Shown: positions 9,227-34,815 of the stretch, piece after piece
Layout of the letters: every line of letters begins with the position of its first letter
How positions within the stretch are numbered: position 1 is the stretch's first letter
Translations under genes and position numbers: made by a program
Source of the DNA: Thermodesulfobacteriota bacterium
GTDB taxonomy: Bacteria; Desulfobacterota_D; UBA1144; Nemesobacterales; UBA2774
NCBI GenBank assembly: GCA_965216785.1
Contig: OZ244197.1
Coordinates: 2,336,001 to 2,400,000, forward strand
DNA length: 64,000 bases
Direction: 5' to 3'
Notes under the pieces: generated by a model
What the model saw: only the letters and a program-made list of their open reading frames with translations
Database searches by the model: none
What the model was told of the DNA's origin: nothing

Positions 9227-9243
9227 TGTCTTATAATCTGACA
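9227..9243 (+). promoter_or_regulatory. Enhancer-like site, copy 1 (TGTCTTATAATCTGACA)
   Basis: TGTC-N9-GACA dyad; reverse complement recurs at 29635 and 34701; 50 bp upstream of a sigma54 motif. Confidence 0.75.
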
Positions 9244-9292
9244 CAAGTCAATCATTTTACTCTAGAATCATCAATAATACTGGGATTTTAAA

Positions 9293-9308
9293 CGGCATGC
9301 ATATTGCC
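9293..9308 (+). promoter_or_regulatory. Sigma54 promoter for USP gene
   Basis: CGGCATGCATATTGCC = GG-N10-GC. Confidence 0.75.
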
Positions 9309-9453
9309 AATTATAATATTAGTATGATAACGCGCGATGTGTTATCATATATGTATGAACAATACGCGTTATCAAGCCAAGTTAAAGTAATACATTAGGT
9401 TTGTGGTATTGTCTGATTTTGACAGAGTTAACAATATGTTTAAGGAGGTTCTG

Positions 9454-9891
9454 ATGAAGATTGAAAAAATATTATTCCCGACCGATTTTTCTTTAAAATC
9501 ATTAAAAGCAAGAGAGTACGCGATCTATCTTGCCGGTATGCTGGATGCCACGGTGTTCATACTGCACGCGATCGAGCCTTTTGAGTACGATGAGCTTGAT
9601 GATGAGATAAAAGGGTTTTATAAGGATCTTGAGATTCAGCTCAAGGAAAAGATGGAGAAGGAAAAAGATGTATTCACTTCAAGCGGCATCGGAGTGCATG
9701 ACGATATAGTGATAGGGCCCAGATGGAGAGTCGTCAACACCTACGCGAGCGAGCACGCGATCGATTTAATCGTTATGGGATCTCACGGTGTAAAGACAGA
9801 AACCGGAGAGCTTTCGGTAGGCACGACGAGCCATAAGGTTATGTTCACTTCCCCTTGCCCGGTGCTGCTGGTGAGACACGGAAAAGAATAG
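9454..9891 (+). CDS. Universal stress protein (single domain)
   Basis: KILFPTDFS, DLIVMGSHG, VGTTS..V....PCPVL; AGGAGG RBS. Confidence 0.93.
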   Translation: MKIEKILFPTDFSLKSLKAREYAIYLAGMLDATVFILHAIEPFEYDELDDEIKGFYKDLEIQLKEKMEKEKDVFTSSGIGVHDDIVIGPRWRVVNTYASEHAIDLIVMGSHGVKTETGELSVGTTSHKVMFTSPCPVLLVRHGKE

Positions 9892-10003
9892 TATTAGAGA
9901 GAAAAGGGATATTTAAAAATGAGTTTTTCTCTGCCCTCATATAGTATATAATGTAAATACTCTAGGCGGAGATTACTTGTCTATCTATTTACAGGAGGAT
10001 TCT

Positions 10004-10828
10004 ATGAGAGTAAGGAAGAAAACTCATTTAGCTATAGCCGCAGTGCTCTTTTCAGTAAGCTTTATATTCATTGGCCATACATATCTTACACAAATTGCTG
10101 GTGCGCAAGATGAGCCCCAGCAGGCAGCTCAGGCTGAGCCGCAAATAGCGATCGAGCCTGAAGCGCTCACTGTGCTCAAAAGGATGTCCGACGCTCTGAG
10201 CTCCCTTAAGCAGTTCAGCTTCGATGCCGAGGTCAATTTTGACGAACCCATAGATTCGGGACAGATGGTTCAGTACGGAGGCGTTGTAACAATAACCGTA
10301 AAAAGACCCAACAAAGTGTTTGCGGAAATGACAGGAGACCGGGCCCAGCGAAAGGCATGGTATAACGGTAAGGAATTAACCATGTTTGATCAGAAAAAAG
10401 ACTTTTACGGTCAGCTCGAAACACCCGATACCATAGATAAGACAATGGACTACCTCATGGAGACCTATGATTTTACACTCCCGCTGGCCGACATCCTGCA
10501 CACGGATCCATACGGGTCGTTTTCTGACGGCGCGTTGGAGGGCGTGGTCATAGGCGACGCTATAGTCAGAGGAAAGCAGTGCTCGCACATTGCGTTTGCC
10601 GGAGAGCTGATAGATTGGCAGATATGGGTTTCCAAAGAGGAGCCGGCTCTACCTTGTAAGCTGGTTATTACATATGAAGATCAACCGGGCGTGCCGCAGT
10701 ACCAGGCCACATTCTCTAACTGGAATGTGAACCCTGAAGTGCCGAACTCCTTGTTTAAGGCGCAGATACCCGAGGACGCGGTAAAGATTGATTTCATAGA
10801 TATGAAGAAACAAAGGGGGGCTAAATAA
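10004..10828 (+). CDS. Periplasmic DUF2092-like protein
   Basis: Signal peptide; LKRMSD.L, RPNK, PLADIL, DWQIW, PCKLVIT, W...P pattern. Confidence 0.8.
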   Translation: MRVRKKTHLAIAAVLFSVSFIFIGHTYLTQIAGAQDEPQQAAQAEPQIAIEPEALTVLKRMSDALSSLKQFSFDAEVNFDEPIDSGQMVQYGGVVTITVKRPNKVFAEMTGDRAQRKAWYNGKELTMFDQKKDFYGQLETPDTIDKTMDYLMETYDFTLPLADILHTDPYGSFSDGALEGVVIGDAIVRGKQCSHIAFAGELIDWQIWVSKEEPALPCKLVITYEDQPGVPQYQATFSNWNVNPEVPNSLFKAQIPEDAVKIDFIDMKKQRGAK

Positions 10829-11748
10829 TGAGATTAAGCATGAGAAATAATACTAAAAGACCTACAGTATTAATCATCTTCCTATTATTATCAGCGCTGC
10901 TCATTGTCACGAGCGACGCTTTCGCCCGCAGAGGCGGCGGTGGACACAGGGGAGGAGGGGGACATAAAAACGTTCAGAGAGGCGGGGGCGGAGGCGGCGG
11001 TGGGTTCGGAAACCGCGGTAACGGTAGCGTCCGCTATTCCGGGCAGCGAAACAATCAGGGGAGCAGGCAACGGAGCGCTCAGCACAGAAACCCCTCACAG
11101 GGAACAAGGCAAAATGTCGGTACCCGTCCGAATAACCCTAACAGGCCCAATAATCCCAACAATCCCAACAGGCCCAATAACCCGGGCAACAGACCTGGTA
11201 ATCCAGGCAACAGGCCGGGCGGCGGCAACAATACCATCAATGTTGACGTTACTAGAAAATATAGCAACAAAAATTATTACGGCGGTCACTGGAACTCTTG
11301 GGGCGGTTACTATTCAGGCTGGGCGTTTGCAAGCGGTCTTGTAATTGGGGCCGCGATTGCGAGCATACCTCAGCAGTCTCAGACAGTCTATGTGGGCGGA
11401 GACACCATATACTATTCAGAGGGCGTGTATTACGCCCCTGAAGGGAGTGAATACGTCGTGATACCGCCTCCTACCGGTGCGGTCGTAACGGATCTTCCTT
11501 CTTCCTGCACGACTGTAAGTGTGGGAGAGTACGACTACTACAACTGCGGCGGGGCGTATTACCTTAGACAGGGGTCAGAATATAAGGTCGTAGAGCCTCC
11601 GGTGGGAGCAATAGTGAGTGATATCCCCGAGGGCGCTCAGAAAACAGATATTAACGGGCAGACCTATTTTGTTTTCGCGGGCGGCTACTATCAGCCGTTT
11701 TACAGCGGGAACTCTGTCGTTTACAAAATCGTTCAGGCGCCTGCGTAA
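10828..11748 (+). CDS. Secreted Gly/Asn/Pro-rich protein with Tyr-rich repeat domain (DUF6515-like)
   Basis: Signal peptide ending AFA, low-complexity region, three YYY..G.YY..Y.VV.PP repeats; TAATG-coupled to upstream gene. Confidence 0.75.
   Translation: MRLSMRNNTKRPTVLIIFLLLSALLIVTSDAFARRGGGGHRGGGGHKNVQRGGGGGGGGFGNRGNGSVRYSGQRNNQGSRQRSAQHRNPSQGTRQNVGTRPNNPNRPNNPNNPNRPNNPGNRPGNPGNRPGGGNNTINVDVTRKYSNKNYYGGHWNSWGGYYSGWAFASGLVIGAAIASIPQQSQTVYVGGDTIYYSEGVYYAPEGSEYVVIPPPTGAVVTDLPSSCTTVSVGEYDYYNCGGAYYLRQGSEYKVVEPPVGAIVSDIPEGAQKTDINGQTYFVFAGGYYQPFYSGNSVVYKIVQAPA
11125..11220 (+). repeat. Intragenic coding repeats (RPNNPN / RPGNPGN)
   Basis: Degenerate tandem units, e.g. AACAGGCCCAATAA twice. Confidence 0.8.
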
Positions 11749-11862
11749 AGCCTTTGGTTTTGCGAAGACTCTAACTCGAAAGCCGGCTAACGCCCGGGCA
11801 AGTATTAAACTAATACCCCGAGCCGGGGCTCCGCTCAAAATACGACCCAAGGTAATTTGCGC

Positions 11863-12696: not shown

Positions 12697-12721
12697 TTTT
12701 CTGTTAGACTTTGTGCCCGGC

Positions 12722-14672: not shown

Positions 14673-14684
14673 ACCGTGATAATT

Positions 14685-16550: not shown

Positions 16551-16926
16551 ACTAACCTCCTCCTACCAGAAGTGTTAATTGAGTATACATAATATTTAAG
16601 ATTCTTGAACTCAAATTTTATCTTAGCAAACCAACAGGCCTTGAGCTGGATAGCGTCTAAAACGTATAGCTTGCGGCAAAGCCTAGCTGCTCAAAATTAC
16701 TGAGTCCCGCGTCTGTCATTGTAAAGGTAAGAAGCGATATAAGGGCTATGAAGAATACGTTTTTTCCCCCATTTAAGACTCCTTTGGTTATTAGTATTAA
16801 TAATTATAACAAATTAGGTTCCGGTGAGTTCTGATAACGGTTTGATGCCAAAAATTAGAAACTTGCACTATAATTAAGAGTGAGACGAAAATTCCTTTAA
16901 GCGGGAAAAATAACTGGAGAAATAAA

Positions 16927-18102
16927 TTGCAGGAGAAACAAAGACGCAACTGGCTTGGAAATACTACTACTGTCGTCTTTTTACTGGCGATTCTTGGCGC
17001 GCTGATTTATGGTGCTGCAGTTTTCTACAACGGCTACATCCAGGATATTAAGCGTGGCGAGAACGGAGTTGCGGCGATTCAAGTATTGGACGAGTTGAGA
17101 GGCTCGTTCCTTGAGATGAAGCAAGAGGAATTAACCTTGCTTCAGTCTACCGACCAGACGCGCGCGATTGCCGGTATTGAAAACTCGATAAACCGGCAGC
17201 GCCAGAGGCTGTCTACTTACCTCAAACTCGCGGACTATAACGAGGAAATTAGAAGTACCGCTCCCAAACTCATGGTCAGCTTTGAGGCCTGGGCGTCACT
17301 TGAGCTGGATCTGGTGAACAGTAAAGCGGCTCTTCAAGCCGATCCGGGTATTAGAGCCGATAATAGTCAGATAGGATTTCTCGTACAAAGAAGCTTGTCG
17401 TCGTTCCTAAATGTCATGGACGTTCTGGGGGAGGGTGAGAGACCCATAGAAGAGGACATTAAAGCAGGAGCCGCGGCGGCTGACGGTCTGTTTACGAGCA
17501 CACTTGTGTTCGTAGCGTATCTGATCTGCCTTGCGTTCTGGTGGGTGTGGTCGGCGGCCGGCAGAGAGAGACGGCACTACAAGAACGTGCGCGAGTTCGC
17601 GCATATGAGTAATACCGACAACCTTACAGGACTCATCAATCGCGTTGTATTTGAAGACAGGCTCTCCGCCGCGATTGCGGGAGCGCGCCGCTACGGCAGC
17701 AGCGCCGGGGTCTTATACTTTGACCTTGACGGTCTAAGGGAATTGAACGTAAAGAAGGGATATCAATCAGGTGATATAGTCCTCAAAGAGGTTGCGCTCA
17801 GGCTTCAGCAATATACCCGCGAGATGGATACGGTGGCCAGAGTTGGTGATGACGAGTTCGCGGTTCTGGTAACCAACCTGAAGCAAAAGGAAGATGCCCA
17901 GGTAGTTGTGGACAAGCTTAAAAACGCCCTGACACAGCCGATTGAGCTTAACGGCGAGCAATACTCGCCAAGCGTTAGCATAGGCGCTTCGGTGTTTCCC
18001 TACGATGGGGAAGAGCCCGAAGAGCTCGTCAATAATGCGAACTCCGCTATGTATGAGGCAAAACAGGGATCTAAACCCAACGTTGCTTCCATCCAGCACT
18101 GA
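16927..18102 (+). CDS. Membrane GGDEF-domain protein (GDDEF variant)
   Basis: Two TM segments around a helical sensor; DNLTGLINR, DLDG, REMD I-site, RVGDDEF. Confidence 0.9.
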   Translation: MQEKQRRNWLGNTTTVVFLLAILGALIYGAAVFYNGYIQDIKRGENGVAAIQVLDELRGSFLEMKQEELTLLQSTDQTRAIAGIENSINRQRQRLSTYLKLADYNEEIRSTAPKLMVSFEAWASLELDLVNSKAALQADPGIRADNSQIGFLVQRSLSSFLNVMDVLGEGERPIEEDIKAGAAAADGLFTSTLVFVAYLICLAFWWVWSAAGRERRHYKNVREFAHMSNTDNLTGLINRVVFEDRLSAAIAGARRYGSSAGVLYFDLDGLRELNVKKGYQSGDIVLKEVALRLQQYTREMDTVARVGDDEFAVLVTNLKQKEDAQVVVDKLKNALTQPIELNGEQYSPSVSIGASVFPYDGEEPEELVNNANSAMYEAKQGSKPNVASIQH

Positions 18103-18114
18103 TCAATAATGCTA

Positions 18115-18165
18115 CTCAGCTCTTTAGGCTCTTATACAGCTCGTCGTGGATAGAGTCTTCGAGCT
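18115..18165 (-). repeat. att-like duplicate of the 3' end of the glutamate-synthase-family gene
   Basis: 18115-18148 is identical to 21235-21268 (34 bp); similarity continues to about 18165. Confidence 0.93.
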
Positions 18166-18246
18166 TAAAAAATGTAGAAAAGTAATACTATTCAAATTAG
18201 TATATCTATATATAGGAAGAAAATTGAAGTTGAAGGTTTAGGTAGA

Positions 18247-20691
18247 CTAACCGTTTAATCTTACAATGTATCCTTCAAAATCATCAGCTAATTCTAAGTC
18301 AAATTTCTCAAAAATACGTATCCACACTTTTGTCTTAAGATATTTTTCTTGTTCATCTTCATTACCAAATTCTTTAAGCCAATCGGGTGGTTCTGAAATG
18401 AATTTATCTAGTAGGTCTCGATTCTCAGAAAAGAATTCAATATTAATGTAAAATATATCTTTCTCAACAAATTCTGGGTTATCCTCCGGCATAAGAGGCG
18501 AATATTGTACTAGTTGACCTAACTGCTTTTTATTTAATAGTATTATAAGATCATCTATACCAGGAATAATAAAACTGAATACCGGGATCTTTTTATATGT
18601 TCCTACTCTTTGTTCCTTCTGCATATTATCATGATATTCTCTTTGACTTGAAATAAAATTTTCATTTATTTCCTTAAACTTATACAAAGAAAAACGAGTA
18701 GCTAATATTACTACATCATCTGAACTGTCAAATAAATCAATTTGTTTAAGAAACTCTTCTCTTGTTACTTCAATGCACGTTGATGCAATTTTAGCATATA
18801 GAAATGAATTCTCCGCTTGTGCTAGATCTCTGCCATAATTTTTAGCCCAATCTCTATAAGTTACATGCCACTCTTGAAAAAAGATGGCTTTTTCATCAAT
18901 TTTATTGATGCCAAATCGATTCAGTTTAGTATTAATGTATGTCATTTTTTCTGAATATAAATTGATACTCATAAACATGTTTCTAATTGTACTATGTTGA
19001 TTAAATGATGTTACAAAATCATCCTCGAATTCAAGTATTTTTGCTGAACTTGGTTTTAATTCTTCTGCCCGTTTTTTAAATTCATTTTCTGCCATTTTTT
19101 TTATATCTTCGAAATATTGGATTATGCATCTCAGAAATATTTCCTCTATATCATTTTCACTAAAATTCAATTCAGACAAAAATTGCTTCTCATTGCTAAG
19201 ACTTTTAGTGATATTGATATAATCATTTATAAAAAACTTGAGATCTTGCAGTCTATATATATCTATCTCTTCAACGAACCCAAATCTATTCTTTGTAATC
19301 TCAAATTTTTCAGGTTCATATAAGTTAGAATCAAATTTTATAACTCTAGCTAGTACTAGTATGAAATAGCGGTTTAAGTATATTTCTTGTCCATGATGAC
19401 CTTCCCAGCTATTCAACCTACGCTCGAAGAACGGTTTATCAAAATAAAATTTCATCAGACTATTAATAGTGGTAGGTGTTATATCATGACCAGCCCATTT
19501 TGCATCTGAGTCAGGAGGTTGTTTATATTCCCAGATAAAACGAATATAATCTGGTTTCTCTTTGAATAGGCAATAACTTCCTATAGCAAATGCAATTTCC
19601 AATATGCTAATAAATTTAATTTTATTGTCGAAACCGTCATAAATGTCTTTTTCAATTTGATAAGTGTATTCTTGCTGTTGAATATTAAAATATGGTTTTA
19701 AGATATCTTTAAGTTCTGTAAATTTGGCTCTGCAATGTTCTAAATCTTTCAGAACCGTGATATTTTCTGAATCGTTGTACAGAGTCTCTAATTTTTCTTC
19801 TATATTGTGTCTGTTATCTATCGATCTGTATAATTCAATATCCGATTGCATGATTAAATGACCATATTCCCATATTCTATTTATTCCGTAACTTGATAAG
19901 GATATTCCGTCAATCAACATAGATATTAGATGCTGAAATATTTCGAAGCGTCCATATGAAATAATTGTTTTTGCAGAAGAGAGGAAATGTTCATCGAAAA
20001 TTGACAGATAATATAGATTAAATTTTTTTTCAGGTTGTCCTAATAGATTGAATACTATATTTGTGTACCAATGAACTGATGAAGAATAAATAGAACGATC
20101 ACCAATTTTTCCACTATATTTCAAGAACAATATGGTAGTAATCTGATTTAAATATCTTAATATAGTCCTTATGTGTAGTTCATTATTCTCATCTTGAGCT
20201 AATTTGCCTAATACCATTTCAATTCGATATATGGCATGTGCAGAAATTTCCTCATTCCCAACTTTTAATGCAGATTCCCAGATTTTACCAAAGTAACTTA
20301 AAAATAAATCGAATAAACCTGTTTCAATTTCGGTTTCGGATATAATATCTTTCTCGGCTAACTCGGCCTGCATAGAACCGTCAATATTAAATCTTGGACT
20401 CGGGAGGTTTAATTTTGGTTTTATTCGATACTTTGCAAATGAAATCAGATATTGATTGTATTTATGTTTGTCTTCCTTTTTTAATTCATAGAACTTAATG
20501 ACATAATGTTCGAGACTGTCTAGTATTTCTAAAACAGTTTTATTTTCGTAGCGTGATGTTTTAGTTACAGCAATATTAGTTAATTTCTCTAGAGCAAATA
20601 TGAAATCGCCAATATCTTGTTTTTTCCTAAAAAATACTTTCAGCATGGTCTCGTAATTTTTGAGATATAACCCCTTCAATATTTGTAACAT
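18247..20691 (-). CDS. Large hypothetical protein; probable C-terminal part of a frameshifted gene of about 960 aa
   Basis: 814-codon ORF in AT-rich DNA, overlapping the upstream ORF at a T6 run. Confidence 0.75.
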   Translation of the reverse strand: MLQILKGLYLKNYETMLKVFFRKKQDIGDFIFALEKLTNIAVTKTSRYENKTVLEILDSLEHYVIKFYELKKEDKHKYNQYLISFAKYRIKPKLNLPSPRFNIDGSMQAELAEKDIISETEIETGLFDLFLSYFGKIWESALKVGNEEISAHAIYRIEMVLGKLAQDENNELHIRTILRYLNQITTILFLKYSGKIGDRSIYSSSVHWYTNIVFNLLGQPEKKFNLYYLSIFDEHFLSSAKTIISYGRFEIFQHLISMLIDGISLSSYGINRIWEYGHLIMQSDIELYRSIDNRHNIEEKLETLYNDSENITVLKDLEHCRAKFTELKDILKPYFNIQQQEYTYQIEKDIYDGFDNKIKFISILEIAFAIGSYCLFKEKPDYIRFIWEYKQPPDSDAKWAGHDITPTTINSLMKFYFDKPFFERRLNSWEGHHGQEIYLNRYFILVLARVIKFDSNLYEPEKFEITKNRFGFVEEIDIYRLQDLKFFINDYINITKSLSNEKQFLSELNFSENDIEEIFLRCIIQYFEDIKKMAENEFKKRAEELKPSSAKILEFEDDFVTSFNQHSTIRNMFMSINLYSEKMTYINTKLNRFGINKIDEKAIFFQEWHVTYRDWAKNYGRDLAQAENSFLYAKIASTCIEVTREEFLKQIDLFDSSDDVVILATRFSLYKFKEINENFISSQREYHDNMQKEQRVGTYKKIPVFSFIIPGIDDLIILLNKKQLGQLVQYSPLMPEDNPEFVEKDIFYINIEFFSENRDLLDKFISEPPDWLKEFGNEDEQEKYLKTKVWIRIFEKFDLELADDFEGYIVRLNG

Positions 20692-21130
20692 ACTGATTGA
20701 TACGTATCATAAACCTCCAAAATACCAAAATATTTATTATTGACCACACAAAATATATCACTAACAAATATGGACTGGAAATTCCAATAAATCTGAACAA
20801 AATGCCAAACATAATACTTACTAGGAACAAAAGGTATTGAGACTTATATAGAAATTCATCGGTGAGTAAAGATGCTATCTCTCCATCATAATCTTTCGTA
20901 ATATTAGATACAACCTGAACACTTATTGGAATTGATAAACCAATAAATACCCCTTCGACTGTGATCACGTCTTGTATAAAAGTTGCATTAGTAGTTAGTG
21001 AAAATAGTTTCTGTATATATGATGGAGCAGGATTGCCAAAGTAAAAAGAATTAAATGTTAATCCTATTACAAAGACTAATAGAAATAAGGTAAATGCTAC
21101 CGAGAAATTGTATAGATTTGAACGATTCAC
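20627..21130 (-). CDS. Hypothetical membrane protein (about 4 TM); probable N-terminal part of the split gene
   Basis: Four hydrophobic segments; ends ATT TTT TAG. Confidence 0.7.
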   Translation of the reverse strand: MNRSNLYNFSVAFTLFLLVFVIGLTFNSFYFGNPAPSYIQKLFSLTTNATFIQDVITVEGVFIGLSIPISVQVVSNITKDYDGEIASLLTDEFLYKSQYLLFLVSIMFGILFRFIGISSPYLLVIYFVWSIINILVFWRFMIRINQYVTNIEGVISQKLRDHAESIF

Positions 21131-21235
21131 TTAAGTCTCTATGGTGGTTGTTAAACAAATAATGTATAAGCGACTATAGCAGAAAATGGAAAAATCTTCA
21201 ACTGCAGGTCTCAAAGCACCGGATAGCCAAAATCC

Positions 21236-22963: not shown

Positions 22964-23011
22964 GAGCTATAGTCTAATTAAAAGTTAAGCTTTTTAAAAC
23001 ACAAACAGCTC

Positions 23012-25690: not shown

Positions 25691-25736
25691 GGGTAATAGC
25701 TAGTATATAGTTTGCTATTCACAGTAAATGAAAAAA

Positions 25737-26444
25737 TTAAGCAAGTCCCCTGAGCACATAGCCCACCACATAAGCGATTACAGCCGCGACCCCTCCGATC
25801 AGGAGGGTTTCAATGCCTGACAAAAACCATTTTTTATCGACGATAGTGGCCTTAACGGAGCCAACTATAAAAAAGGCGACTGAGGTGAGTATAATCGAGA
25901 GCGTAAAGACGTTTTCGCTGAGCGATGTAAAAAAGTAAGATAGTACGTAAGCGAGAAGCGGTATAAACCCTACAAGGTTAAATGAAACGAATGTAACCAG
26001 TGCGTTCTTAATGGGCGAAGTGTCGTCTTCGAATATGCCGAACTCGTCCTTCATCATGGTGTCTATCCATATCTCCTGATTGCTCGTAATTATTTCGACC
26101 GCGTCCTCAAGGGGCTTGCCTGTAAAACCCTTATCTTTAAATATTTGCCTTATCTCCTCCTCTTCCTCCTCTGGGATGTGGAGTACCGATTGCTCTTCAG
26201 ACTTCCTTATTTTATCTGCGTATTCCTTTTTGGATTTAGAGCTCAGGTAGTTGCCTACGGCCATAGAAAAACCGTCTGCGAAAAGGTTCGCGAAACCGAG
26301 AATTAGCACAATAGTGGGCGAGAGTGACGCTCCTGTTACGCCCGCCACAATTGCAAATGTCGTAACCGAGCCGTCTATACCCCCGTAGATAAATTCCGGC
26401 AAATATGAATGGAGGCGGTTCTCATTAGTCTTGTCGGTATTCAT
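25737..26444 (-). CDS. VIT1/CCC1 Fe/Mn transporter family
   Basis: YGGIDGSVTTFA, ANLFADGFSMA, acidic cytoplasmic loop. Confidence 0.92.
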   Translation of the reverse strand: MNTDKTNENRLHSYLPEFIYGGIDGSVTTFAIVAGVTGASLSPTIVLILGFANLFADGFSMAVGNYLSSKSKKEYADKIRKSEEQSVLHIPEEEEEEIRQIFKDKGFTGKPLEDAVEIITSNQEIWIDTMMKDEFGIFEDDTSPIKNALVTFVSFNLVGFIPLLAYVLSYFFTSLSENVFTLSIILTSVAFFIVGSVKATIVDKKWFLSGIETLLIGGVAAVIAYVVGYVLRGLA

Positions 26445-26445
26445 G

Positions 26446-28026
26446 TTATGTCTCCAGGTTTTTTTGTATCAGGCGTTTGAATATTTTAGTTAATATGTTT
26501 CCCTTGGGCTCTGTCGTATCCACTATAATTAGATTCTCATCACTGACCTCATTGGGGTCTTCAAACTCGCTGGTGAACCTCTCAAGTATTTCGAGCCTGC
26601 CGTCTGAAATAGACCCTCCGAGAATCTCTCTCTGCTGGAGTCTATCGCGTACGACTTCCATAGGCGCTGTTGTCTGAATAAAGAATACCGGAGTGTTGAG
26701 CTCTGAAGCGGAGCTAAGTACGAGCTCTCTCCATTTAGCTTTTGAAAAGCTCGCGTCAACCACCGCGCACTCTCCCGTATTTATTATCCCCATTCCCCTC
26801 GCAGCCAATTCTTCATATGTATCCAGGGTAATCTCTTTTGAATAAATACCACTTTCATATTCCTCAAAATGTCTTTCTCCGGGTTTAGCGCCAGCCTTTT
26901 CTTTCCTTAGAGCATCTGATGATATAACCTGGCAAGACAGCTGCTTTGAAAGTGAGCTTGCGAGGGTGGACTTTCCCGTTCCGATAGAGCCGCAAATAAC
27001 AAGAAGCGTTGGTTTAGAGCCCAGGAGCGCGTAGCGTAAGGCGAGCTTAAAATACTTTTGCGCCCGCACAAGCGCCTCCTCTCTAATTTCGCTCGGCACC
27101 TCGGGCTCAAATGCCTTTATGCTCTCCACCTTGCCCCTCACATATGCCCTGTAGCATTTATAGAAATCAAGCACACGGTAAAGCCCTCTGTCCTCCATCA
27201 ACTCTGAGATGCGGGAGATGAAATAACGTGAATAATCGTAATAACCGTTAAGGTCAAGGTCCATTGCCAAAAACCCCGTATCAGAGGCGATATCTATAAA
27301 TCTAAACCTCTCGTTAAACTCAATGCAGTCGTATATGTTAATTCCCCCGGGGCTTATGTTAATGTGCTCCAGGTGCAGATCGCCGTGGCAGTTCTTGATA
27401 AAGCCGCCCTCCGCCCTTTCATGGAAAAGCTGTGAGCGGGTCTTAAAGAAACCCCAGTTGTATTCCTTCACTGCGTTAAATGAAGACTCAGAGATTGTTT
27501 TCCCTATGAACTTTCTGCTCTGAGAAGTGCTCTCGTCAACGCTATACTTAATGCTCGCAGGCTCTCCGTACGCGGAGATTTCCGGGTCCGGACGCTCGTT
27601 TTTGTAAAACTCCGCAAGTTTTTGTGCTATGCCGTCAAAATTTTTTTTTGAGGCTTTACCCTCTTTGAGCAAGTTTTTAAGAAAATATTTCTCGGGAAGC
27701 TCTTTCATCAAAAGGGCGTACTCTATGGTCTTCTCCCCTGGGCCGAATACATATTCCCCATCCTTAAGCGAAATCTCAAGAACTTGTAGGTATATGCCGC
27801 TTGTAAGCCTTCTGTTTAAGACAAGCTCTTTGTCTAAGAAATACTTTCGCTTCTCAAGCGTTGTAAAATCGAGGAACCCGAAATCTACCGGCTTTTTAAC
27901 TTTGTAAACGTAGGGGCTTGCGATAAAAACATCCGAGGCGTGCGTCTGCACGTGAGCGACTCTCTCTGGGTGATGAGGATATGAAGAAGTCTTTAATAGA
28001 AAATCCGTAAGTGCCCTGCGGTTCAA
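26446..28026 (-). CDS. Phosphotransferase-fold / P-loop kinase fusion (Rv2004c-like)
   Basis: YKVKKPV.FGFLDF, CHGDLH, DCIEFN; Walker A GSIGTGKST. Confidence 0.9.
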   Translation of the reverse strand: MNRRALTDFLLKTSSYPHHPERVAHVQTHASDVFIASPYVYKVKKPVDFGFLDFTTLEKRKYFLDKELVLNRRLTSGIYLQVLEISLKDGEYVFGPGEKTIEYALLMKELPEKYFLKNLLKEGKASKKNFDGIAQKLAEFYKNERPDPEISAYGEPASIKYSVDESTSQSRKFIGKTISESSFNAVKEYNWGFFKTRSQLFHERAEGGFIKNCHGDLHLEHINISPGGINIYDCIEFNERFRFIDIASDTGFLAMDLDLNGYYDYSRYFISRISELMEDRGLYRVLDFYKCYRAYVRGKVESIKAFEPEVPSEIREEALVRAQKYFKLALRYALLGSKPTLLVICGSIGTGKSTLASSLSKQLSCQVISSDALRKEKAGAKPGERHFEEYESGIYSKEITLDTYEELAARGMGIINTGECAVVDASFSKAKWRELVLSSASELNTPVFFIQTTAPMEVVRDRLQQREILGGSISDGRLEILERFTSEFEDPNEVSDENLIIVDTTEPKGNILTKIFKRLIQKNLET

Positions 28027-28053
28027 AAGGTCCTCATTCCGCGTATATTTTTA

Positions 28054-28950
28054 TCAAGGGTTAATGGCAAAAACGCTGCATGTAGCGTTATGTATTACCT
28101 TCTCCGTTACGCTTCCCAATAACAGCCTGTTGATGCCTGTCCTTCCATGAGTGTGAATCACAATAAGGTCAGTCCCCTTTTCCTCAGCGTAGGTAGATAT
28201 AGTCGAAGCCACGCTAAGGCCGTGAACGACCTCTGTTTTAATTTTAATATCCTTTGGACCTTTGTATTGTTTCGCGATCCGCTCCACTTCTTTTTCAAGC
28301 TCGGATATAGACTGTCTTATTACAATGTTTAGCGCCCCCGCGGGTACGTCCTGTGCGTACATGTCGAGCCTTAGCGCGTATATTACAGTTATACGTCCGG
28401 ACGTGGCGTTTGCGATGTCCATTGCGCTATGCAGCGCTGTTTTGCATTTATGCGACAAATCGTAGGGTACTAAAATATTCTTGTAAGAAACTTTCCTGCG
28501 GCCCGCTTTAGCTTTCGTAATCAGTACCGGTTTCTCAGTTACCTTGACTACTTTTGAGGTTTCGCTCCCCAGTATCAGGCTCCCGATAAAGCCGTGACCG
28601 TGCTTTCCCATGACAATGAGGTCAGCGTTTCTTTTACGCGCGAACTCTCTAAGTTTCTCAGACGGGTTTCCCCTTAGCAGAACACCTTCGAATTTTATAT
28701 CCGATTTCGCAAGGTTCTTCTCAATCTTAGCGAATTTCTTTGTGAAATCGTCTTCGACTTTTGTCATCCAGTCCTTAAATTCAACCTCGTCTCCGCTCAA
28801 GGACTCAAAAAGCATAACGGTGGGCAAGGGAATGACGTGTGCCCCAATAATGTTGGCGCCGGTTAATTCTGCCATATATTTCGCGTTTAATAGAGCGTTA
28901 TCAGCTTCTTTTGAGCCGTCTGTAGCCCAGAGTATCTTCTTAATTTTCAT
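28054..28950 (-). CDS. Tandem-domain universal stress protein
   Basis: KILWATDGS; two DLIV..HG...GS motifs. Confidence 0.93.
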   Translation of the reverse strand: MKIKKILWATDGSKEADNALLNAKYMAELTGANIIGAHVIPLPTVMLFESLSGDEVEFKDWMTKVEDDFTKKFAKIEKNLAKSDIKFEGVLLRGNPSEKLREFARKRNADLIVMGKHGHGFIGSLILGSETSKVVKVTEKPVLITKAKAGRRKVSYKNILVPYDLSHKCKTALHSAMDIANATSGRITVIYALRLDMYAQDVPAGALNIVIRQSISELEKEVERIAKQYKGPKDIKIKTEVVHGLSVASTISTYAEEKGTDLIVIHTHGRTGINRLLLGSVTEKVIHNATCSVFAINP

Positions 28951-29055
28951 TTAACACCTCGTCTGTAATTTGTCCAAGAAATCCCGACAATCGCCATCCG
29001 CCGGCGGACTTTTCATACTATTCTAACATAAACCCCCGATTATATAATCTCGAGT

Positions 29056-29505
29056 CTATATGACCTTGGACTTACTGCTCATTGCCATTGCCAGGTTAAC
29101 GACCTCCGTTGCCACGACCACTATCAGATCATCGACAGATACTATGCCCGTAAGCTTTCCGCCGCTCGTAATGGGCAGCCTTCTCACCGAATGCTCCTGC
29201 AGGATCCTGATTATATCAAACAGATCTGTATCCTCATCAACGCTCACAGGGTCTTTGGTCATAATATCCTCTACAGTGACTTCAGTGGGGTTTATTCTCT
29301 CGGCTATCACTGAAACCACTAAATCCCTGTCTGTAATGATCCCGATGGGTTTAGAGTCTTTGTCTGTAACGACAAGAGCCCCGATATCCTCGTTCCTCAT
29401 TAAATACGCGGCTTCCGAAACGGAATCATAAGAGGAAATAGTGATAACGTTTCTGTGTATTAATTCCTTAAAAGTACTTGAATAATCCTTTGACTTAGCG
29501 TGCAT
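29056..29505 (-). CDS. Stand-alone CBS-pair protein (Hrp1/Rv2626c-like)
   Basis: IGALVV, GIITDRDL, VRRLP, GIVSVDD. Confidence 0.9.
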   Translation of the reverse strand: MHAKSKDYSSTFKELIHRNVITISSYDSVSEAAYLMRNEDIGALVVTDKDSKPIGIITDRDLVVSVIAERINPTEVTVEDIMTKDPVSVDEDTDLFDIIRILQEHSVRRLPITSGGKLTGIVSVDDLIVVVATEVVNLAMAMSSKSKVI

Positions 29506-29546
29506 AACGTACTCCTGCTCGATTTTTTTACTATATATTCTGTAGT

Positions 29547-29562
29547 TGCAACTTAAGTGCCT
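29547..29562 (-). promoter_or_regulatory. Sigma54 promoter for the CBS-USP operon
   Basis: Minus strand AGGCACTTAAGTTGCA = GG-N10-GC. Confidence 0.8.
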
Positions 29563-29634
29563 TCTGGAAACGTTAAAAAATCTTCAATAAAATCAGCTTA
29601 ATCTGATATTCAGATTCAAAATGACAGTGTCTAT

Positions 29635-29650
29635 TGTCAGATTATAAGAC
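29635..29650. promoter_or_regulatory. Enhancer-like site, copy 2 (TGTCAGATTATAAGAC)
   Basis: Exact 16-bp reverse complement of 9228-9243; lies between two divergent sigma54 motifs. Confidence 0.78.
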
Positions 29651-29705
29651 GCTGGTGTGTCTGATGTAGCTATCGAATTTCCTTTTATTCTTAGATTAAA
29701 CGGCT

Positions 29706-29721
29706 TGGCATTTATTTTGCA
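29706..29721 (+). promoter_or_regulatory. Sigma54 promoter for the 80-aa ORF
   Basis: TGGCATTTATTTTGCA = GG-N10-GC. Confidence 0.78.
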
Positions 29722-29780
29722 CTTAAATATAGTAGTCAAAGGGATGTAGTATTGAATATAGGATATTTTAGGAGGCTTCT

Positions 29781-30023
29781 ATGTCTGACTATAACACTTT
29801 GTACCTTATAGACTCTACATATAATTCAGAGCGTGACGCGACAGAGGTAACTTTCGGTTACCTTGAGAAAGAAAAGGAGATAGTTGGCAGGAATATGAAA
29901 GTAAGGGTAATTGTGAGCGTTCCGGGCGGAAAAGATGACATGACCTCCGTAATTAAAGAGGGGTTAAAGAAGGCAAAACACGTACTGAAAACGGCCTCTA
30001 AAGCATCTTATGAGGAAGATTAA
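29781..30023 (+). CDS. Small hypothetical protein (80 aa)
   Basis: AGGAGG RBS, upstream sigma54 motif, fills an intergenic gap. Confidence 0.75.
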   Translation: MSDYNTLYLIDSTYNSERDATEVTFGYLEKEKEIVGRNMKVRVIVSVPGGKDDMTSVIKEGLKKAKHVLKTASKASYEED

Positions 30024-30066
30024 CTATAGGTAGTAACCACTTGTAATAACAATATATTATATGCTT

Positions 30067-31068
30067 TTAAGCTCCCGTAATTATCTCGTCCAGCTCATTT
30101 AACTTTGATATCTCCCCAATTGCTACGAGCGTGTCACCCGCTTGTATCATGCTCTTTGAGCCCGGGTTAAACTCCATCGTGCCGTCTGTTTTTCTTATAG
30201 CCAGTATTATTATTCCCAGGTCACGGCCGATTCCGGATTCAGCAAGTGTGCATCCGCTTAATTTTGATTTCTCAGAGACTGTTACTTCTTCAATTTGAAG
30301 CTCCAAATTCCCTGTTTTAGTGGCGAACTCCAGAAAATCCACAACGGCGGGCTTGAGCACGGTATTTGCGATCCGTATTCCCCCGGTATGATAAGGTGAT
30401 ACGACCCTGTCTGCCCCGGCGCGCAGTATCTTGCGCTCGGCGCTATCGTCACTCGCCCTCGTTACTATGAACAGCTCGGCATTAAGCTCTCTTGCGCTTA
30501 GCACTACAAACAGGTTCTCCGCGTCCGTTGGGAGTACGGCTACCAAACCCTTAGCCCTTTCGATTCCGGCATTCCTGAGCGCTTCCTCGCTGCTCGCGTC
30601 GCCCTCGACAATTAAAAACTCATCCCTGTCAATTTGAGAGACAGGCTCTTTTTCTATTACAAGGGTCTCAATTCCTTTCGCTTTAAACTCTTTAGCAACG
30701 GTCCTTCCCAGCCTGCCGAATCCGCAGATTATGTAATGGGACTTTATCTCGCTTATTCTTTTCTCCAATCTAGACCTCCCTATATACTCCTGAAGCTCTC
30801 CTTCGAGTAAAAGTTTTGCTTCCGTGCTAAGCAGATACAGAATTATACCTACTCCCACTATTAGCAGAACCATGGTGAATATCTGCCCCTCTGAGCTCAA
30901 AGGGTACACTTCACCGTAACCTACGGTAGTAAGGGTGATTACGGTCATGTAGAGGGCGTCAAGAGGGGGCCAGCCCTCAATAACCATATAACCTATCGTA
31001 CCCGCGGCTATTATTAACACTATTAAAACGAGCGCAGAAAATAGCTTGTTCCCAAGTTTAAGAATCAT
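30067..31068 (-). CDS. Potassium channel with RCK (TrkA-N/C) domains
   Basis: TTVGYG filter, ICGFGRLG, C-terminal TrkA-C. Confidence 0.95.
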   Translation of the reverse strand: MILKLGNKLFSALVLIVLIIAAGTIGYMVIEGWPPLDALYMTVITLTTVGYGEVYPLSSEGQIFTMVLLIVGVGIILYLLSTEAKLLLEGELQEYIGRSRLEKRISEIKSHYIICGFGRLGRTVAKEFKAKGIETLVIEKEPVSQIDRDEFLIVEGDASSEEALRNAGIERAKGLVAVLPTDAENLFVVLSARELNAELFIVTRASDDSAERKILRAGADRVVSPYHTGGIRIANTVLKPAVVDFLEFATKTGNLELQIEEVTVSEKSKLSGCTLAESGIGRDLGIIILAIRKTDGTMEFNPGSKSMIQAGDTLVAIGEISKLNELDEIITGA

Positions 31069-31202
31069 AAAAAACTCCGCGGGCTTGCGCCGCCGGGTTT
31101 AATTGTCGGTCTGAGTGTTCTCGAGCGATGTTTGAGTGTTGCAATCAAAATTTAAACCGCGTCTATGCACAATGCTTTTTAAATTTTTAGTGCCCGATAA
31201 TG

Positions 31203-32072
31203 TTAAGACGGTCTTACGGCAATGACCGCGCAAGACGCTTCCTGTACGACCCTTTCGGTGACGCTCCCTATGAACTCTTCCCTCCTGAACTCACCGCCGC
31301 CGTAAGTATTCAATACTACAAGGTCTATATCCTTTTCCTGTATGAATTTAAGTATTCCCAAAAGAGCGTTCTTAGCTGTATTGACTACAGTAGTAACTTT
31401 ATCCGCCATATCGGCTTCGTTTATCTGCTGTGTAAGCTTGCTATACGCGTTACCTCTGAGCCTCTCAACTACTTCGGGCGGGAATTTCCTGTCGCCGATC
31501 TCAACAATATTCAGGCTGAATATCTCGGCGCCGCTGAGCTCTGAAAAATCAAGGGCAAAGCGCAGGTCCGTGGAATTTATGTTATATAGGTCCGTAGGTA
31601 CGAGAAGACGTTTTATATTAATACTTTCCACATCCTTTTTCGCAATGAGCACTGGTACGGGTGATCGTCTGAGCACCTTTAGAGCAGTTGCGCCCAATAT
31701 GGCTTTGTCGTCCGCTCTGCCTTTCCCGATTACTATTAGGTCCGCTTTAACTTCCTCAGCGGTCTTTATAATCTCTGAGTGGGGGGCGCCCTGGGATATT
31801 CTCGAGCTGAATGATATTCCTTTTTCGTTTGCCACGTCGGCAATCCCGCTCAGCCTGTCGCTTTCTTTCGATTCGGTCTCCTTAATCCACTCCGCCAGCA
31901 TATCGAGCTCTTGTGAAGGAAATTCCTCTAGCACGGGCACTTCATAGTAGTCGGGTATGACGTACAGTCCCACTATCTCAGCGTTTAAGCTCTTTGCAAA
32001 ATATTCAGCGTATTGAAGGGCAAAACCGGCATCCTCAGAATTGTCACAAGCCCAAAGTATTTTATCTATCAA
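31203..32072 (-). CDS. Tandem-domain universal stress protein
   Basis: KILWACD, DLIVIG, IGSVTERVV. Confidence 0.9.
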   Translation of the reverse strand: MIDKILWACDNSEDAGFALQYAEYFAKSLNAEIVGLYVIPDYYEVPVLEEFPSQELDMLAEWIKETESKESDRLSGIADVANEKGISFSSRISQGAPHSEIIKTAEEVKADLIVIGKGRADDKAILGATALKVLRRSPVPVLIAKKDVESINIKRLLVPTDLYNINSTDLRFALDFSELSGAEIFSLNIVEIGDRKFPPEVVERLRGNAYSKLTQQINEADMADKVTTVVNTAKNALLGILKFIQEKDIDLVVLNTYGGGEFRREEFIGSVTERVVQEASCAVIAVRPS

Positions 32073-32226
32073 CAGTAGTCTCCTTAAGTTAATTCCACCA
32101 TTTGGTGGAAATATTCTAATCTATCAGATGAAATTATAAATACTTGGTTGCTCTGAATTGGCAAACTCGTGAATTTCATGCGTATATTAACCATCTGTGT
32201 AAATTCTCAGAAGTAATAGTCCTGAT

Positions 32227-33129
32227 TTATTTTACTGCCAACACTGAGCAGGGCGATTCCTGTATGATCTTTTCAGTTTCACTTCCGTATATGAGTCTGC
32301 TTACCCCTTTGCGACCGTGAGTTTTAACGACCGTCAAATCGATCTGGTTCTTTTCGGCAAATTCCCTGAGCACGTAACTGGGGCTGATGCCGTGAAGGAC
32401 CTGGCTCTTAATCTCCACGCCCGGCTCTTTAGCTTCAGGCGTATCTTTTGAACCCGATTCGGCTGCCACTATACGGGCAAGCTCGGTCTTGGAGCGCTCA
32501 ATAAGCTCGTCTACCAGACCGGGCGGTATCTCATAAGCCGTGCCGTCAAGCCAGAACACATAAACCGCGATAACTTCAGCGCCCACTTTATCCGCAAGGG
32601 CAAGCGCTTCTGGGAGCGCTGAAACCGAGATGTCTGATATATCCACGGGAACCATTATCTTTTTTATATCCGTACTGTATGTATCGCCTTTACTCCTTAC
32701 GGCCAATACGGGAGCATTTATTTGCCTCAATACCTTGACAGTGTTGCTGCCGATAAGCGTGCTGCTTAGAAACCCCTGTCCCTTCTTACCCATCACAATA
32801 AGATCCGCCCCTTCTATGTCGGCGGTTTCTATTATCCCCTCCACGGTGCCGTCCCTGATTATCGTAGAGCTAAAGGGTATACCTTTTTCCTTGAACTTCT
32901 CCGATACCTCGTCAAACCTTTGCTTAAAGCTATTCTCTGTTTTTTCAGCGATTTCTAAAATCGCGTCTTCGTATACCGGCAGAAGAGATGTCAGAGGGAA
33001 ATGAATCTCACTTACGTACAGAGCCGTTACTGAAGCCTTAAAAACATCTGCCAGGTATAGTGCAGAATCAAGCGCTTTGTCCGACTCTTCAGAGCCGTCT
33101 GTAGCCAGGAGTATCTTCTTTATATCCAT
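32227..33129 (-). CDS. Tandem-domain universal stress protein
   Basis: MDIKKILLATDGS (start moved to 33129), DLIVMG, GSETEKII..SPCSVL. Confidence 0.92.
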   Translation of the reverse strand: MDIKKILLATDGSEESDKALDSALYLADVFKASVTALYVSEIHFPLTSLLPVYEDAILEIAEKTENSFKQRFDEVSEKFKEKGIPFSSTIIRDGTVEGIIETADIEGADLIVMGKKGQGFLSSTLIGSNTVKVLRQINAPVLAVRSKGDTYSTDIKKIMVPVDISDISVSALPEALALADKVGAEVIAVYVFWLDGTAYEIPPGLVDELIERSKTELARIVAAESGSKDTPEAKEPGVEIKSQVLHGISPSYVLREFAEKNQIDLTVVKTHGRKGVSRLIYGSETEKIIQESPCSVLAVK

Positions 33130-33134
33130 ATCTA

Positions 33135-33998
33135 TCAAGGGCTGAGCGTTATTACGGGACAAGGTGCTTCCTGAATCACCTTTTCTGTCGTGCTCCCTAT
33201 AAACTCTTCTCTTATTTTCGTTCCGCCGTACGTCATCACAACTATCAGGTCTATGTCGTTTTTCTCCGCGAACTCTATTATACCACGCCATCCGCTTCCT
33301 GAGGCTATGGAATGGAGCTCAGTGTTCTCAGGTATTTTTGTAGCCCCTATGGTTTCCACAAGGTCTCTAAGCGCAAAGCCCTTTAACTGCTCCTGGATTT
33401 CCAGCGGTACGCTAAGGTTCCCGAGCTCTACTACATTGAGCACGTGCAGCTCTCCCCCGAAATCCTCTGCCATCCCGAGCGCGTATTCGTAGTTACCGGA
33501 CAGCCCGTGCATAACGGCAATCGGAGCGAGAATCTTCTTGAACTCCCCCTTTGATTTCGTCTCTAAGGCCGTAAGCACCGGTAGTCGAGTGCCTCTTATT
33601 ACCTTCAGGGCAGTTCCGCCTAGTACGAACCTCTCCAAAATCCTGCCTCGCCCAAGAGATATCAAATCCGCGTTTTCTTTCTCCGCGTACTCTATAATCT
33701 CCTCATGGGGGATTCCCTTAACTACATCAAAACCGAACTTGATTCCCTTTCTCTCTAACTCTTTTGCCAGGCTTTGCATAGACTCCCGCTCCTTGTTCGC
33801 GAGAGTATTATCCATCCACTCAAGAAAACTGTCCTTTTCCTTTTGTGTGAAGTTATTGACGACTGAATAGTATATGGGCAGTACGGACAAACCCATCAAG
33901 GCCGCGTCATACTTTAACGACAGTTTCTCGGCAAGTGCGAGCGCCTCAAGGGAATCGTTTGAACCATCCGTTGCCCAGATTATTTTATTTAAAGTCAT
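33135..33998 (-). CDS. Tandem-domain universal stress protein
   Basis: KIIWATDGS, IGSTTEKVI..APCPV; close paralog of 31203-32072 (shared TYGG...REEFIGS). Confidence 0.92.
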   Translation of the reverse strand: MTLNKIIWATDGSNDSLEALALAEKLSLKYDAALMGLSVLPIYYSVVNNFTQKEKDSFLEWMDNTLANKERESMQSLAKELERKGIKFGFDVVKGIPHEEIIEYAEKENADLISLGRGRILERFVLGGTALKVIRGTRLPVLTALETKSKGEFKKILAPIAVMHGLSGNYEYALGMAEDFGGELHVLNVVELGNLSVPLEIQEQLKGFALRDLVETIGATKIPENTELHSIASGSGWRGIIEFAEKNDIDLIVVMTYGGTKIREEFIGSTTEKVIQEAPCPVITLSP

Positions 33999-34117
33999 AT
34001 GGCTGCCCTCCGTTAACTATTTTATTCCTGCCCCGGCATCGCTGTGAAGCGCTCGCCTCTGTCCCCATTCCCGCTTTATTAATAACCGGATCGTGCTTTG
34101 CACTCCCGGCTGCCCCA

Positions 34118-34573
34118 TTAACTAACCTCTACCTTAATGTCTTTGGGCTTAGACTCCGCTGCCTTTGGCATATGAATCTCCAGAACGCCGTCTTTAAATG
34201 TGGCTTTAACCTTCTTCTCGTTTACCTTGGCTGGCAGATTGAGCACCCTCATAAAGCTCCCGAAAGACCTCTCGGAATAGTAGTAATCTTCCTCCTTGGT
34301 CTCTTCTTCCTTTTTCATCTCACCCTTAATCGTGAGCATGTTGTCTGAAATAGAAATATTCAGATTTTCCTTATCTACCCCGGGAACCTCGGCCTTAACA
34401 ACGATCTCGTTCTTGTTGTCGTACATATCTACAGCGGGAGATGACTCTCCGAACTGAGCAAACGCTCTTAGCGAGGGGAACCTTCTTGCCATACCGCCCG
34501 ATATTGTCTCATCGAACAGATCGTGAAAAAACCTTTCCATATTTTCTCTTGGTGTCCATCTTTTAAGTGCCAT
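34118..34573 (-). CDS. Hsp20 / alpha-crystallin small heat shock protein
   Basis: PAVDMY, AEVPGV, ERSFGSF.R...LP, A.FKDGVLEI..PK. Confidence 0.96.
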   Translation of the reverse strand: MALKRWTPRENMERFFHDLFDETISGGMARRFPSLRAFAQFGESSPAVDMYDNKNEIVVKAEVPGVDKENLNISISDNMLTIKGEMKKEEETKEEDYYYSERSFGSFMRVLNLPAKVNEKKVKATFKDGVLEIHMPKAAESKPKDIKVEVS

Positions 34574-34614
34574 AATACCTACCTCCTTAAAATTGGTTTT
34601 ATATTAATATTTAT

Positions 34615-34630
34615 TACAAGTAACGTGCCA
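34615..34630 (-). promoter_or_regulatory. Sigma54 promoter for the hsp20-USP operon
   Basis: Minus strand TGGCACGTTACTTGTA (perfect -24 box, GT variant at -12). Confidence 0.72.
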
Positions 34631-34700
34631 TATGCATAGCGTTCATATACACTGCTATAATAGATTCCTAATAGAATTATTACGCTCTACACATGTCGTG

Positions 34701-34717
34701 TGTCAGATAATAAGACA
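34701..34717. promoter_or_regulatory. Enhancer-like site, copy 3 (TGTCAGATAATAAGACA)
   Basis: One mismatch in 17 bp to the reverse complement of copy 1. Confidence 0.75.
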
Positions 34718-34815
34718 GTGCAGGATCGTAAAATTTATTCAATTTCAAAGAAAAGCCTTGAAAAGGATCTATTTTTATTCTATGAAATGTATGTAATGGG
34801 GGTTTCGAAAAGACT

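Follow-up and report, generated by a model that had tools for sequence, protein, structure and literature searches.

A conserved 24-bp sigma-54 enhancer-like element in Dadabacteria, with a candidate heme-PAS sensor and NtrC-type activator for a likely low-oxygen regulon

In a 64,000-nucleotide stretch of DNA (contig OZ244197.1, positions 2,336,001 to 2,400,000; the window), one short site recurs in front of genes for a universal stress protein (USP), a CBS-pair protein and Hsp20, accompanied by -24/-12 promoter motifs of the sigma-54 type. The question raised by this locus is which protein reads the site, and in answer to what signal. An earlier reading made from the letters alone (the sequence-only reading) had proposed a stress regulon in which a single enhancer-binding protein controls all five USPs, Hsp20 and the CBS gene. 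The host of the DNA is a Dadabacterium, and the analysis covered its genome (G000; 3,118,197 bp, 92% complete), related genomes (other G-numbers) and individual loci (L-numbers). Judged from sequence, the site is a genuine and conserved enhancer of the sigma-54 type, and the candidate for its regulator is well supported.

The 16-mer TGTCAGATWATAAGAC was found in the window scan without mismatches at 9228-9243 (-), 29635-29650 (+) and 34701-34716 (+), and the three copies that had been described as nearly identical in their core are thus exact over 16 positions. With up to three mismatches allowed, six matches were obtained in the window against 1.09 expected, and six or more were obtained in 0 of 100 shuffles. 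Exact copies in the whole genome were confined to the three in the window. The four -24/-12 motifs lie where the sequence-only reading had placed them, separated from the 16-mer by about 50, 73, 56 and 71 bp, and the orientation of the site is constant relative to the USP, CBS and hsp20 genes, also as proposed. The sites and promoter motifs are as follows.

9227-9250, minus strand: enhancer-like site 1, 24 bp, made up of the 17-bp dyad 9227-9243 and a third half-site TGAC (one mismatch) on the promoter side; 27.3 bits
29628-29651, plus strand: enhancer-like site 2, 24 bp, common to two divergent sigma-54 promoter motifs; 29.9 bits
34694-34717, plus strand: enhancer-like site 3, 24 bp, the top-scoring site of the genome; 33.3 bits
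9293-9308, plus strand: -24/-12 sigma-54 motif of USP gene 1 (sequence and matrix scan)
29547-29562, minus strand: -24/-12 motif of the CBS operon (sequence and matrix scan)
29706-29721, plus strand: -24/-12 motif of a gene for an 80-aa protein (sequence and matrix scan)
34615-34630, minus strand: -24/-12 motif of hsp20 (sequence, matrix scan and gene-first orthologue test)

Two further matches were discarded: 29782-29797, with three mismatches, overlaps a start codon, and a one-mismatch match at G000:850989 lies within coding DNA. IHF-like motifs, matching only at two mismatches, were located between site and promoter for three of the four window promoters, and three HU/IHF-family genes are present in the genome. 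Sigma-54 itself, which the proposal presupposes, is encoded by one intact rpoN gene (E 7e-56), together with 15 sigma-54 activators.

At one mismatch the 16-mer was present in 16 of 41 related genomes. A third half-site, TGTC, was found 7 bp upstream in 16 of the 26 matches outside the host genome; all 16 have a -24/-12 partner, compared with four of the remaining ten. Because the third half-site is coupled to the promoter partner, the element was written as TGTC-nnn-TGTCWKA-N3-TNNGACA. The full element is 24 bp, a 17-bp TGTC-N9-GACA dyad plus the third TGTC half-site. The near-invariant site of 16-17 bp proposed earlier therefore holds for the exact window copies, but the element is longer and is not near-invariant in general.

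A site matrix was trained on 19 sites from outside the host genome, and a sigma-54 matrix was built by us from the known consensus. The site matrix gave 28 matches of at least 14 bits in the host genome, 16 of them intergenic (intergenic DNA makes up 14% of the genome); a -24/-12 motif lies within 140 bp of 11 of these 16, against 6% of random intergenic positions. In relatives, a strong -24/-12 motif was found within 260 bp of 90 of 91 distinct exact-pattern sites (background 7%), these sites being drawn from part of the pattern-bearing loci listed and from sensor-homologue loci, and six of six metagenome sites have the motif at unchanged spacings. In a gene-first test, hsp20 orthologues were selected without the motif (26 loci, two dropped for missing upstream DNA); the -24/-12 motif was present in 24 of 24 and the site in 23 of 24, compared with 1 of 960 shuffles. 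Both the genome-wide scan and the phylogenetic footprint bear out the association of the site with sigma-54 promoter motifs. A coincidental match, or a small mobile repeat that plays no part in transcription, would account for those one-mismatch 16-mers that are coding and have no promoter motif (G000:850989, L022, L024, L046). The flanks of the sites are mutually unrelated, however, and the -24/-12 link, the phasing given below and the gene-first conservation are far above controls, so that this explanation is extremely improbable and is refuted as far as sequence allows.

Distances from site to promoter cluster at about 50, 61, 72 and 83 bp in one orientation and at about 70, 82, 92 and 103 bp in the other, with a best period of about 11 bp. 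Taken about the centre of the 24-mer, the two orientation series coincide in phase (R 0.72), as they do about a point some 5.5 bp from it; taken about the centre of the 17-bp dyad, they do not (R 0.28). From the phasing about the 24-mer centre we infer that the bound complex would span the entire element; taken with the three half-sites, it suggests that the element may be covered by a pair of overlapping dimers or else by a single larger oligomer.

The activator had been predicted to lie outside the window, and the best candidate is indeed encoded 324 kb away, in an operon with the gene order GNAT - sensor - activator (G000:C1:2723618-2727199).

G000:C1:2723618-2724973: NtrC-type activator, overlapping the sensor gene
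G000:C1:2724970-2726526: PAS kinase-type sensor, orthologue of the gene behind the site in one relative
G000:C1:2726612-2727199, equal to L063:11613-12200 (minus strand): GNAT-domain gene, 195 aa, head of the operon in most Dadabacteria loci

The activator has receiver, AAA+ and HTH_8 domains (Pfam), with receiver Asp57 and the GAFTGA motif at 222 intact and with Walker A/B and a Fis-type helix-turn-helix present; its recognition helix does not vary among the 25 orthologues compared. The operon's own site scores 14.3 bits and is accompanied by a strong -24/-12 motif. The sensor operon lies next to two clusters, a nosZ cluster of the Sec type (clade II) and a ccoI-ccoS-ccoNO-ccoP-ccoG cluster, and across 30 Dadabacteria loci it stands beside cco or nos genes or inside USP-hsp20-CBS clusters. 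The GNAT protein had no sequence match in the Protein Data Bank (PDB); acetylation of the activator or of the USPs by this protein is conceivable, an idea that derives from mycobacterial work.

A site was found within 2 kb upstream of the sensor gene in 25 of the 27 loci with enough DNA (in two of these, L112 and L117, the site counted is that of the neighbouring hsp20), compared with 1 of 69 loci of other activators, and near 50 distant kinase loci only four scattered matches were obtained. Among 120 genomes, which are related to one another, the exact pattern was found in 42, a reversed-pattern control in none, the sensor in 46 and an rpoN match in 113. All 42 pattern-bearing genomes have the sensor and the pattern was present in 0 of 74 sensor-less genomes; site and sensor are absent together within families f1, f7, f5 and f2. 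Of the 15 activators only 2723618 has orthologues (66-74%) in five of five motif-positive and zero of five motif-negative genomes. For the other 14, an orthologue is missing in some motif-positive genome or present in motif-negative ones, and the NtrC-like activators 1271931 and 1302818 are present in both kinds of genome alike. On these grounds the 24-bp site is very probably bound by activator 2723618.

It is very unlikely that the site is read by one of the 14 remaining activators or by a factor that is not an activator, with the sensor operon a mere target. In favour of such a reader are TGTC-N9-GACA dyads without the third half-site that flank the GAF-type activator G000:3000494, the G000 matches 2135560 and 567725, which precede small genes, the first resembling neighbours of that activator, and the limitation of the activator comparison to 11 genomes. 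None of the other 14 activators matches the distribution of the motif, however, and sites are nearly absent around other activators, as counted above. The dyads at G000:C1:3000449 and 3005445, together with those at 2135560 and 567725, are without a clear third half-site; the first two are the ones flanking activator 3000494, and activators 84964, 89327 and 3000494 have similar genes of about 90 aa in their vicinity. It may be that a related site is read by a second family of activators, and targets 2135724 and 567315 may belong to another activator.

The sensor has the domain order PAS-PAS-HisKA-HATPase (Pfam). A 90-residue N-terminal query was too strict (10 of 41), and the full protein was used for the search; the named relatives are Candidatus Dadabacteria with 46-89% identity (30 loci), and all other matches reached at most 36%. 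The alignment of the first PAS domain with Bradyrhizobium japonicum FixL is without gaps (E 7e-14), and heme-PAS domains of FixL, DosP or FG214 make up 14 of the domain's 15 matches among PDB sequences. His98, which we take to be the proximal heme ligand, is invariant in 23 of 23 sequences, and Arg118 (the position of FixL Arg220, with the register set by the R220A entry 1y28) is present in at least 90%; L112 and L117 were excluded from this alignment, the segment cut from them being a different, inserted PAS domain. In searches with an alignment-based model (pLDDT 83.5), heme-PAS structures ranked first and LOV domains had slightly weaker E-values; a single-sequence model (pLDDT 38) was not used. 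The first PAS domain is therefore likely to bind heme and to read O2. A second sensor copy was seen in G041, G047, G048, G049 and G050, mostly without the first PAS region, and extra PAS domains occur in the sensors of L085, L087, L112 and L117 (open frames of 620-960 aa).

The content of the regulon was read from the 69 strong intergenic -24/-12 motifs of the host genome, of which 15 have an upstream site of at least 14 bits and 19 one of at least 10 bits. The targets headed by a site are the following.

The four window transcripts
The regulator operon itself
A CBS gene beside cco
A PEP-synthase-family operon, probably continuing into a further USP and CBS
An AdoMet synthetase gene
A PCMT-YbaK-release-factor-like operon
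A flavin oxidase gene and a radical-SAM gene (heme pathway)
Two nos promoters, weak (10.7 and 11.5 bits)
USP 235690, weak (11.4 bits)

An NnrS gene adjoins one target, and USP 1613240 of the host genome has no site. In many relatives the ccoI sites are strong, and few targets recur as often as the ccoI-cbb3 promoter. A second target cluster, in L313 (G000:C1:1740000-1756000), holds genes for a cytochrome c peroxidase, two dehydrogenases, a PEP synthase family member and CMD, and continues with an Na/H exchanger, a USP, a CBS protein, a PF01941-type AdoMet synthetase, PCMT, and YbaK-like and release-factor-like proteins. In L026 (1600-1995, plus strand) a 131-aa PF18780-repeat protein is encoded behind a site at +69/70; it occurs in several genera, has no match in the host genome and is possibly a second-tier regulator.

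Because the regulon has cbb3 oxidase and nosZ clusters among its targets and a heme-PAS sensor associated with it, it probably serves the response to low oxygen (with USPs, Hsp20, CBS proteins, cbb3 and NosZ as members) and not to general stress. The stress regulon proposed earlier was right in that USP, Hsp20 and CBS genes stand behind the site, but the set is larger and more specific. A signal other than O2, with the heme-PAS domain reading NO, CO, redox state or heme in a nitrogen-oxide or energy-stress programme, would suit the nos cluster among the targets, the NnrS gene beside one of them, PDB titles of heme-PAS structures that also bind NO and CO, and the retention of the regulon in genomes without a ccoNO match. 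It is nevertheless quite unlikely, given the conserved distal Arg position of FixL, the frequency of the ccoI-cbb3 promoter among targets and a USP/Hsp20/P-type ATPase set that fits hypoxia regulons (PMC3721108).

On balance we favour the reading in which the 24-bp element is the enhancer of one NtrC-type activator, predicted to be phosphorylated at low O2 by the FixL-like heme-PAS sensor. The activated protein would contact the sigma-54 holoenzyme and switch on the USPs, Hsp20, the CBS proteins, the cbb3 operon (ccoI-S-NO-P-G) and the clade II nos cluster; it would also turn on its own operon, giving positive feedback, and the outcome would be a microoxic-respiration and dormancy-type programme. 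ccoNO was found in 32 genomes, all of them among the 46 that bear the sensor.

Several points weigh against this reading. The host sites before ccoI (8.6 bits), the nos genes and USP 235690 are weak. Of the 46 sensor-positive genomes 14 have no ccoNO match, and four (G045, G046, G038, G054) lack the exact pattern; in G046 a 21-bit site nonetheless precedes hsp20. The pattern used for the 120-genome count was partly derived from sensor-adjacent sites, and the relatedness of the genomes means that the 42-to-0 split overstates independence. The comparison of rival activators scored 74 of 77 matches in its 11 genomes and left out the sensor-adjacent match of G011. For the same-strand class, phasing at a period of 10.5 was not significant. 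Binding of the activator to the site, start sites, heme, oxygen sensing and expression are all predictions. Finally, the sensor H-box reads H-H-M-G-T in each of the 30 orthologues, so that H+1 is His and H+4 is Thr; a His at H+1 is very uncommon and characterises DrBphP, a phosphatase without kinase activity, as well as inactivated Agp1 (PMC8292422).

The bearing of the H-box was considered together with the N-box, in which Asp stands in place of the first Asn, again in all 30; apart from this the N, G1 and G2 boxes are intact. H+1 was Glu or Asp in 49 of 50 distant kinases, the remaining one being unaligned. HisKA proteins need an acid at H+1 to act as kinases, and Thr or Asn at H+4 to act as phosphatases (PMC3510030). 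The H+1 Glu of CpxA is in contact with Asn356, and at that position GHKL ATPases have a general-base Glu (PMC3904827). The double change could accordingly be a compensating swap or the mark of a dedicated phosphatase. If the latter, the sensor would be an O2-gated phosphatase only: the oxy form would dephosphorylate the activator, low O2 would stop this, and phosphate would come from acetyl-phosphate or another kinase. The invariant His and Thr of the H-box speak for it in the light of PMC3510030, as does DrBphP, a phosphatase with His at H+1 that still needs ATP (PMC8292422). We regard it as unlikely, however: the N-box partner is an invariant Asp here and His in DrBphP (PMC8292422), the general-base Glu of GHKL ATPases at the partner position fits a compensating swap (PMC3904827), the nucleotide-binding boxes are intact and no second kinase accompanies the operon in 30 loci. 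The sensor more probably still autophosphorylates, with His304 and Asp414 as a swapped pair where Glu and Asn are usual. Either way the output would be the same, and by analogy with FixL and NmpR it can be predicted with considerable confidence to be ON at low oxygen.

Joined into one picture, these parts describe a whole Dadabacteria low-O2 programme (cbb3, clade II N2O reductase) run by a FixL-type sensor wired to a sigma-54 activator without an Fnr/FixK layer, with the catalytic acid moved from H-box to N-box (His/Asp for Glu/Asn) and the kinase active, and with a compact enhancer read by two overlapping dimers. As a whole this picture is tentative, a possibility to which we give rather less than even weight.

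Among described systems the closest in working is NmpRSTU of Myxococcus xanthus, whose regulon comprises a CBS protein, a USP, a P-type ATPase-cbb3 operon, hemN and its own genes (PMC11841059). Both have an NtrC-like sigma-54 activator, a set of O2-utilisation genes, control of their own operon and a heme sensor upstream (PMC11841059). The NmpR site is a pair of GCGCA-N5-TGCGC dyads 14-15 bp apart, and NmpRSTU uses a protoglobin kinase (NmpU) and a multi-component relay (PMC11841059). The Dadabacteria element is one compact 24-mer with three half-sites, the Dadabacteria system has a single PAS-PAS-HisKA-HATPase sensor, and no protoglobin (PF11563) match was found in the 92% complete host genome. 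Hsp20 and nosZ are further Dadabacteria targets that set it apart. Among the sequences compared, the best outside matches of the activator reached 36-42%. The Dadabacteria system works like NmpRSTU but is not a member, since sensor and site differ.

With FixL-FixJ-FixK of rhizobia and Rhodopseudomonas the system shares a heme-PAS kinase-type sensor, and its outputs resemble those of FixLJ-FixK, among which are ccoNOQP, fixGHIS, nos and small heat-shock genes (PMC13327599). Unlike FixJ, the partner here is a sigma-54 AAA+ activator encoded by the overlapping downstream gene, and no Crp/Fnr (FixK) layer was found in the host genome, in which no PF13545 match exceeded the cut-off. The sensor has H-H-x-x-T in place of H-E and scores 181 against a FixL-model cut-off of 850; its sensor domain is predicted to be FixL-like, yet the protein falls outside FixL by H-box, partner and score. 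DosR is a regulator of the LuxR type. The DosR regulon of Mycobacterium and the lxa locus of Burkholderia cenocepacia likewise contain several USPs, alpha-crystallin and a cation-transporting ATPase, but lxa has an Anr/Fnr-like TGA-N6-TCA motif where the Dadabacteria genes have sigma-54 promoters and the upstream element (PMC3721108). DrBphP of Deinococcus radiodurans is also a HisKA sensor with the rare His at H+1, but it senses light; its H+4 residue is Glu and its N-box partner His, where the Dadabacteria sensor has Thr and Asp (PMC8292422). In Vibrio cholerae FlrB-FlrC a heme-binding PAS kinase feeds a sigma-54 activator; that pair controls flagellar genes, and its PAS domain is described as having a novel architecture with unconventional heme binding, not a FixL-like one.

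A literature search, with subscription journals outside its coverage, returned no described sigma-54 regulation in Dadabacteria, and for FixL or heme sensing joined to an NtrC-like activator and cbb3 control only the NmpR paper was matched. The accessible parts of PMC4641369, PMC12316311 and PMC3884062 contain no such site or system; Desulfovibrio motifs in the figures and supplements of PMC4641369 could include a similar dyad. For this uncultured phylum the work names a concrete candidate regulator, a DNA site and a set of targets. If correct, it would add a further independent wiring of a recurring hypoxia gene set after DosR, Fnr/FixK and NmpR, with FixL-type sensing passed directly to sigma-54. 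It also predicts when Dadabacteria would express clade II N2O reductase, a matter of relevance to N2O sinks. The invariant His/Asp pair is a ready-made case for asking whether HisKA kinases can have their 'essential' H+1 acid at another position.

The genes around the three window sites agree with Pfam on the five USPs, the CBS gene and Hsp20 of the sequence-only reading.

9454-9891, plus strand: single-domain USP; ATG at 9454 after AGGAGG, open frame from 9403 (Pfam)
21236-22963, minus strand: glutamate-synthase FMN-domain protein (Pfam); likely the distal CBS-operon gene after a 48-bp gap, judging by gene order
23012-25690, minus strand: cation-transporting P-type ATPase (Pfam); likely in the CBS operon
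25737-26444, minus strand: VIT1-family transporter (Pfam); likely in the CBS operon
26446-28026, minus strand: AAA_33 protein, 526 aa (Pfam); the L179 orthologue is first behind its own site-bearing promoter
28054-28950, minus strand: two-domain USP (Pfam), second gene after CBS; weak hairpin in the 105-bp gap
29056-29505, minus strand: CBS-pair protein (Pfam), first in the leftward transcript; promoter layout kept for orthologues in L036, L044, L210, L216 and L221
29781-30023, plus strand: 80-aa protein, conserved but outside known protein families; in two families its gene faces the CBS gene across the divergent promoter that bears the site; no Pfam match and no atlas match at 0.9
30067-31068, minus strand: K+ channel with TrkA domains (Pfam); possibly the last hsp20-operon gene, the weakest case of membership
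31203-32072, minus strand: two-domain USP (Pfam); likely in the hsp20 operon, the gap having no promoter or site of its own
32227-33291 (open frame), minus strand: two-domain USP; Usp domain from residue 57, true start probably near 33120
33135-33998, minus strand: two-domain USP immediately 3' of hsp20 (Pfam)
34118-34573, minus strand: Hsp20/alpha-crystallin protein (Pfam), first in its transcript; orthologues in the gene-first test
34816-35844, plus strand: Zn alcohol dehydrogenase (adh), divergent from hsp20 in the same intergenic region

The adh gene was left out of the regulon, its side of the intergenic region having no -24/-12 motif. Just 3' of the CBS operon, 18247-21130 (minus strand) holds open frames of 814 aa and 167 aa without Pfam match. 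No clear terminator or internal promoter was found in the CBS and hsp20 operons, and sigma-70 and terminator scans over 17800-35000 gave no more than chance would. Of the five window USPs, a single one (9454-9891) heads a transcript, and for this gene control by the activator, as proposed earlier for all five, is matched by a promoter motif and a site. The other four would belong to the regulon only if the CBS and hsp20 operons are read through, as is suggested by gene order and by relatives in which such USPs have a site of their own.

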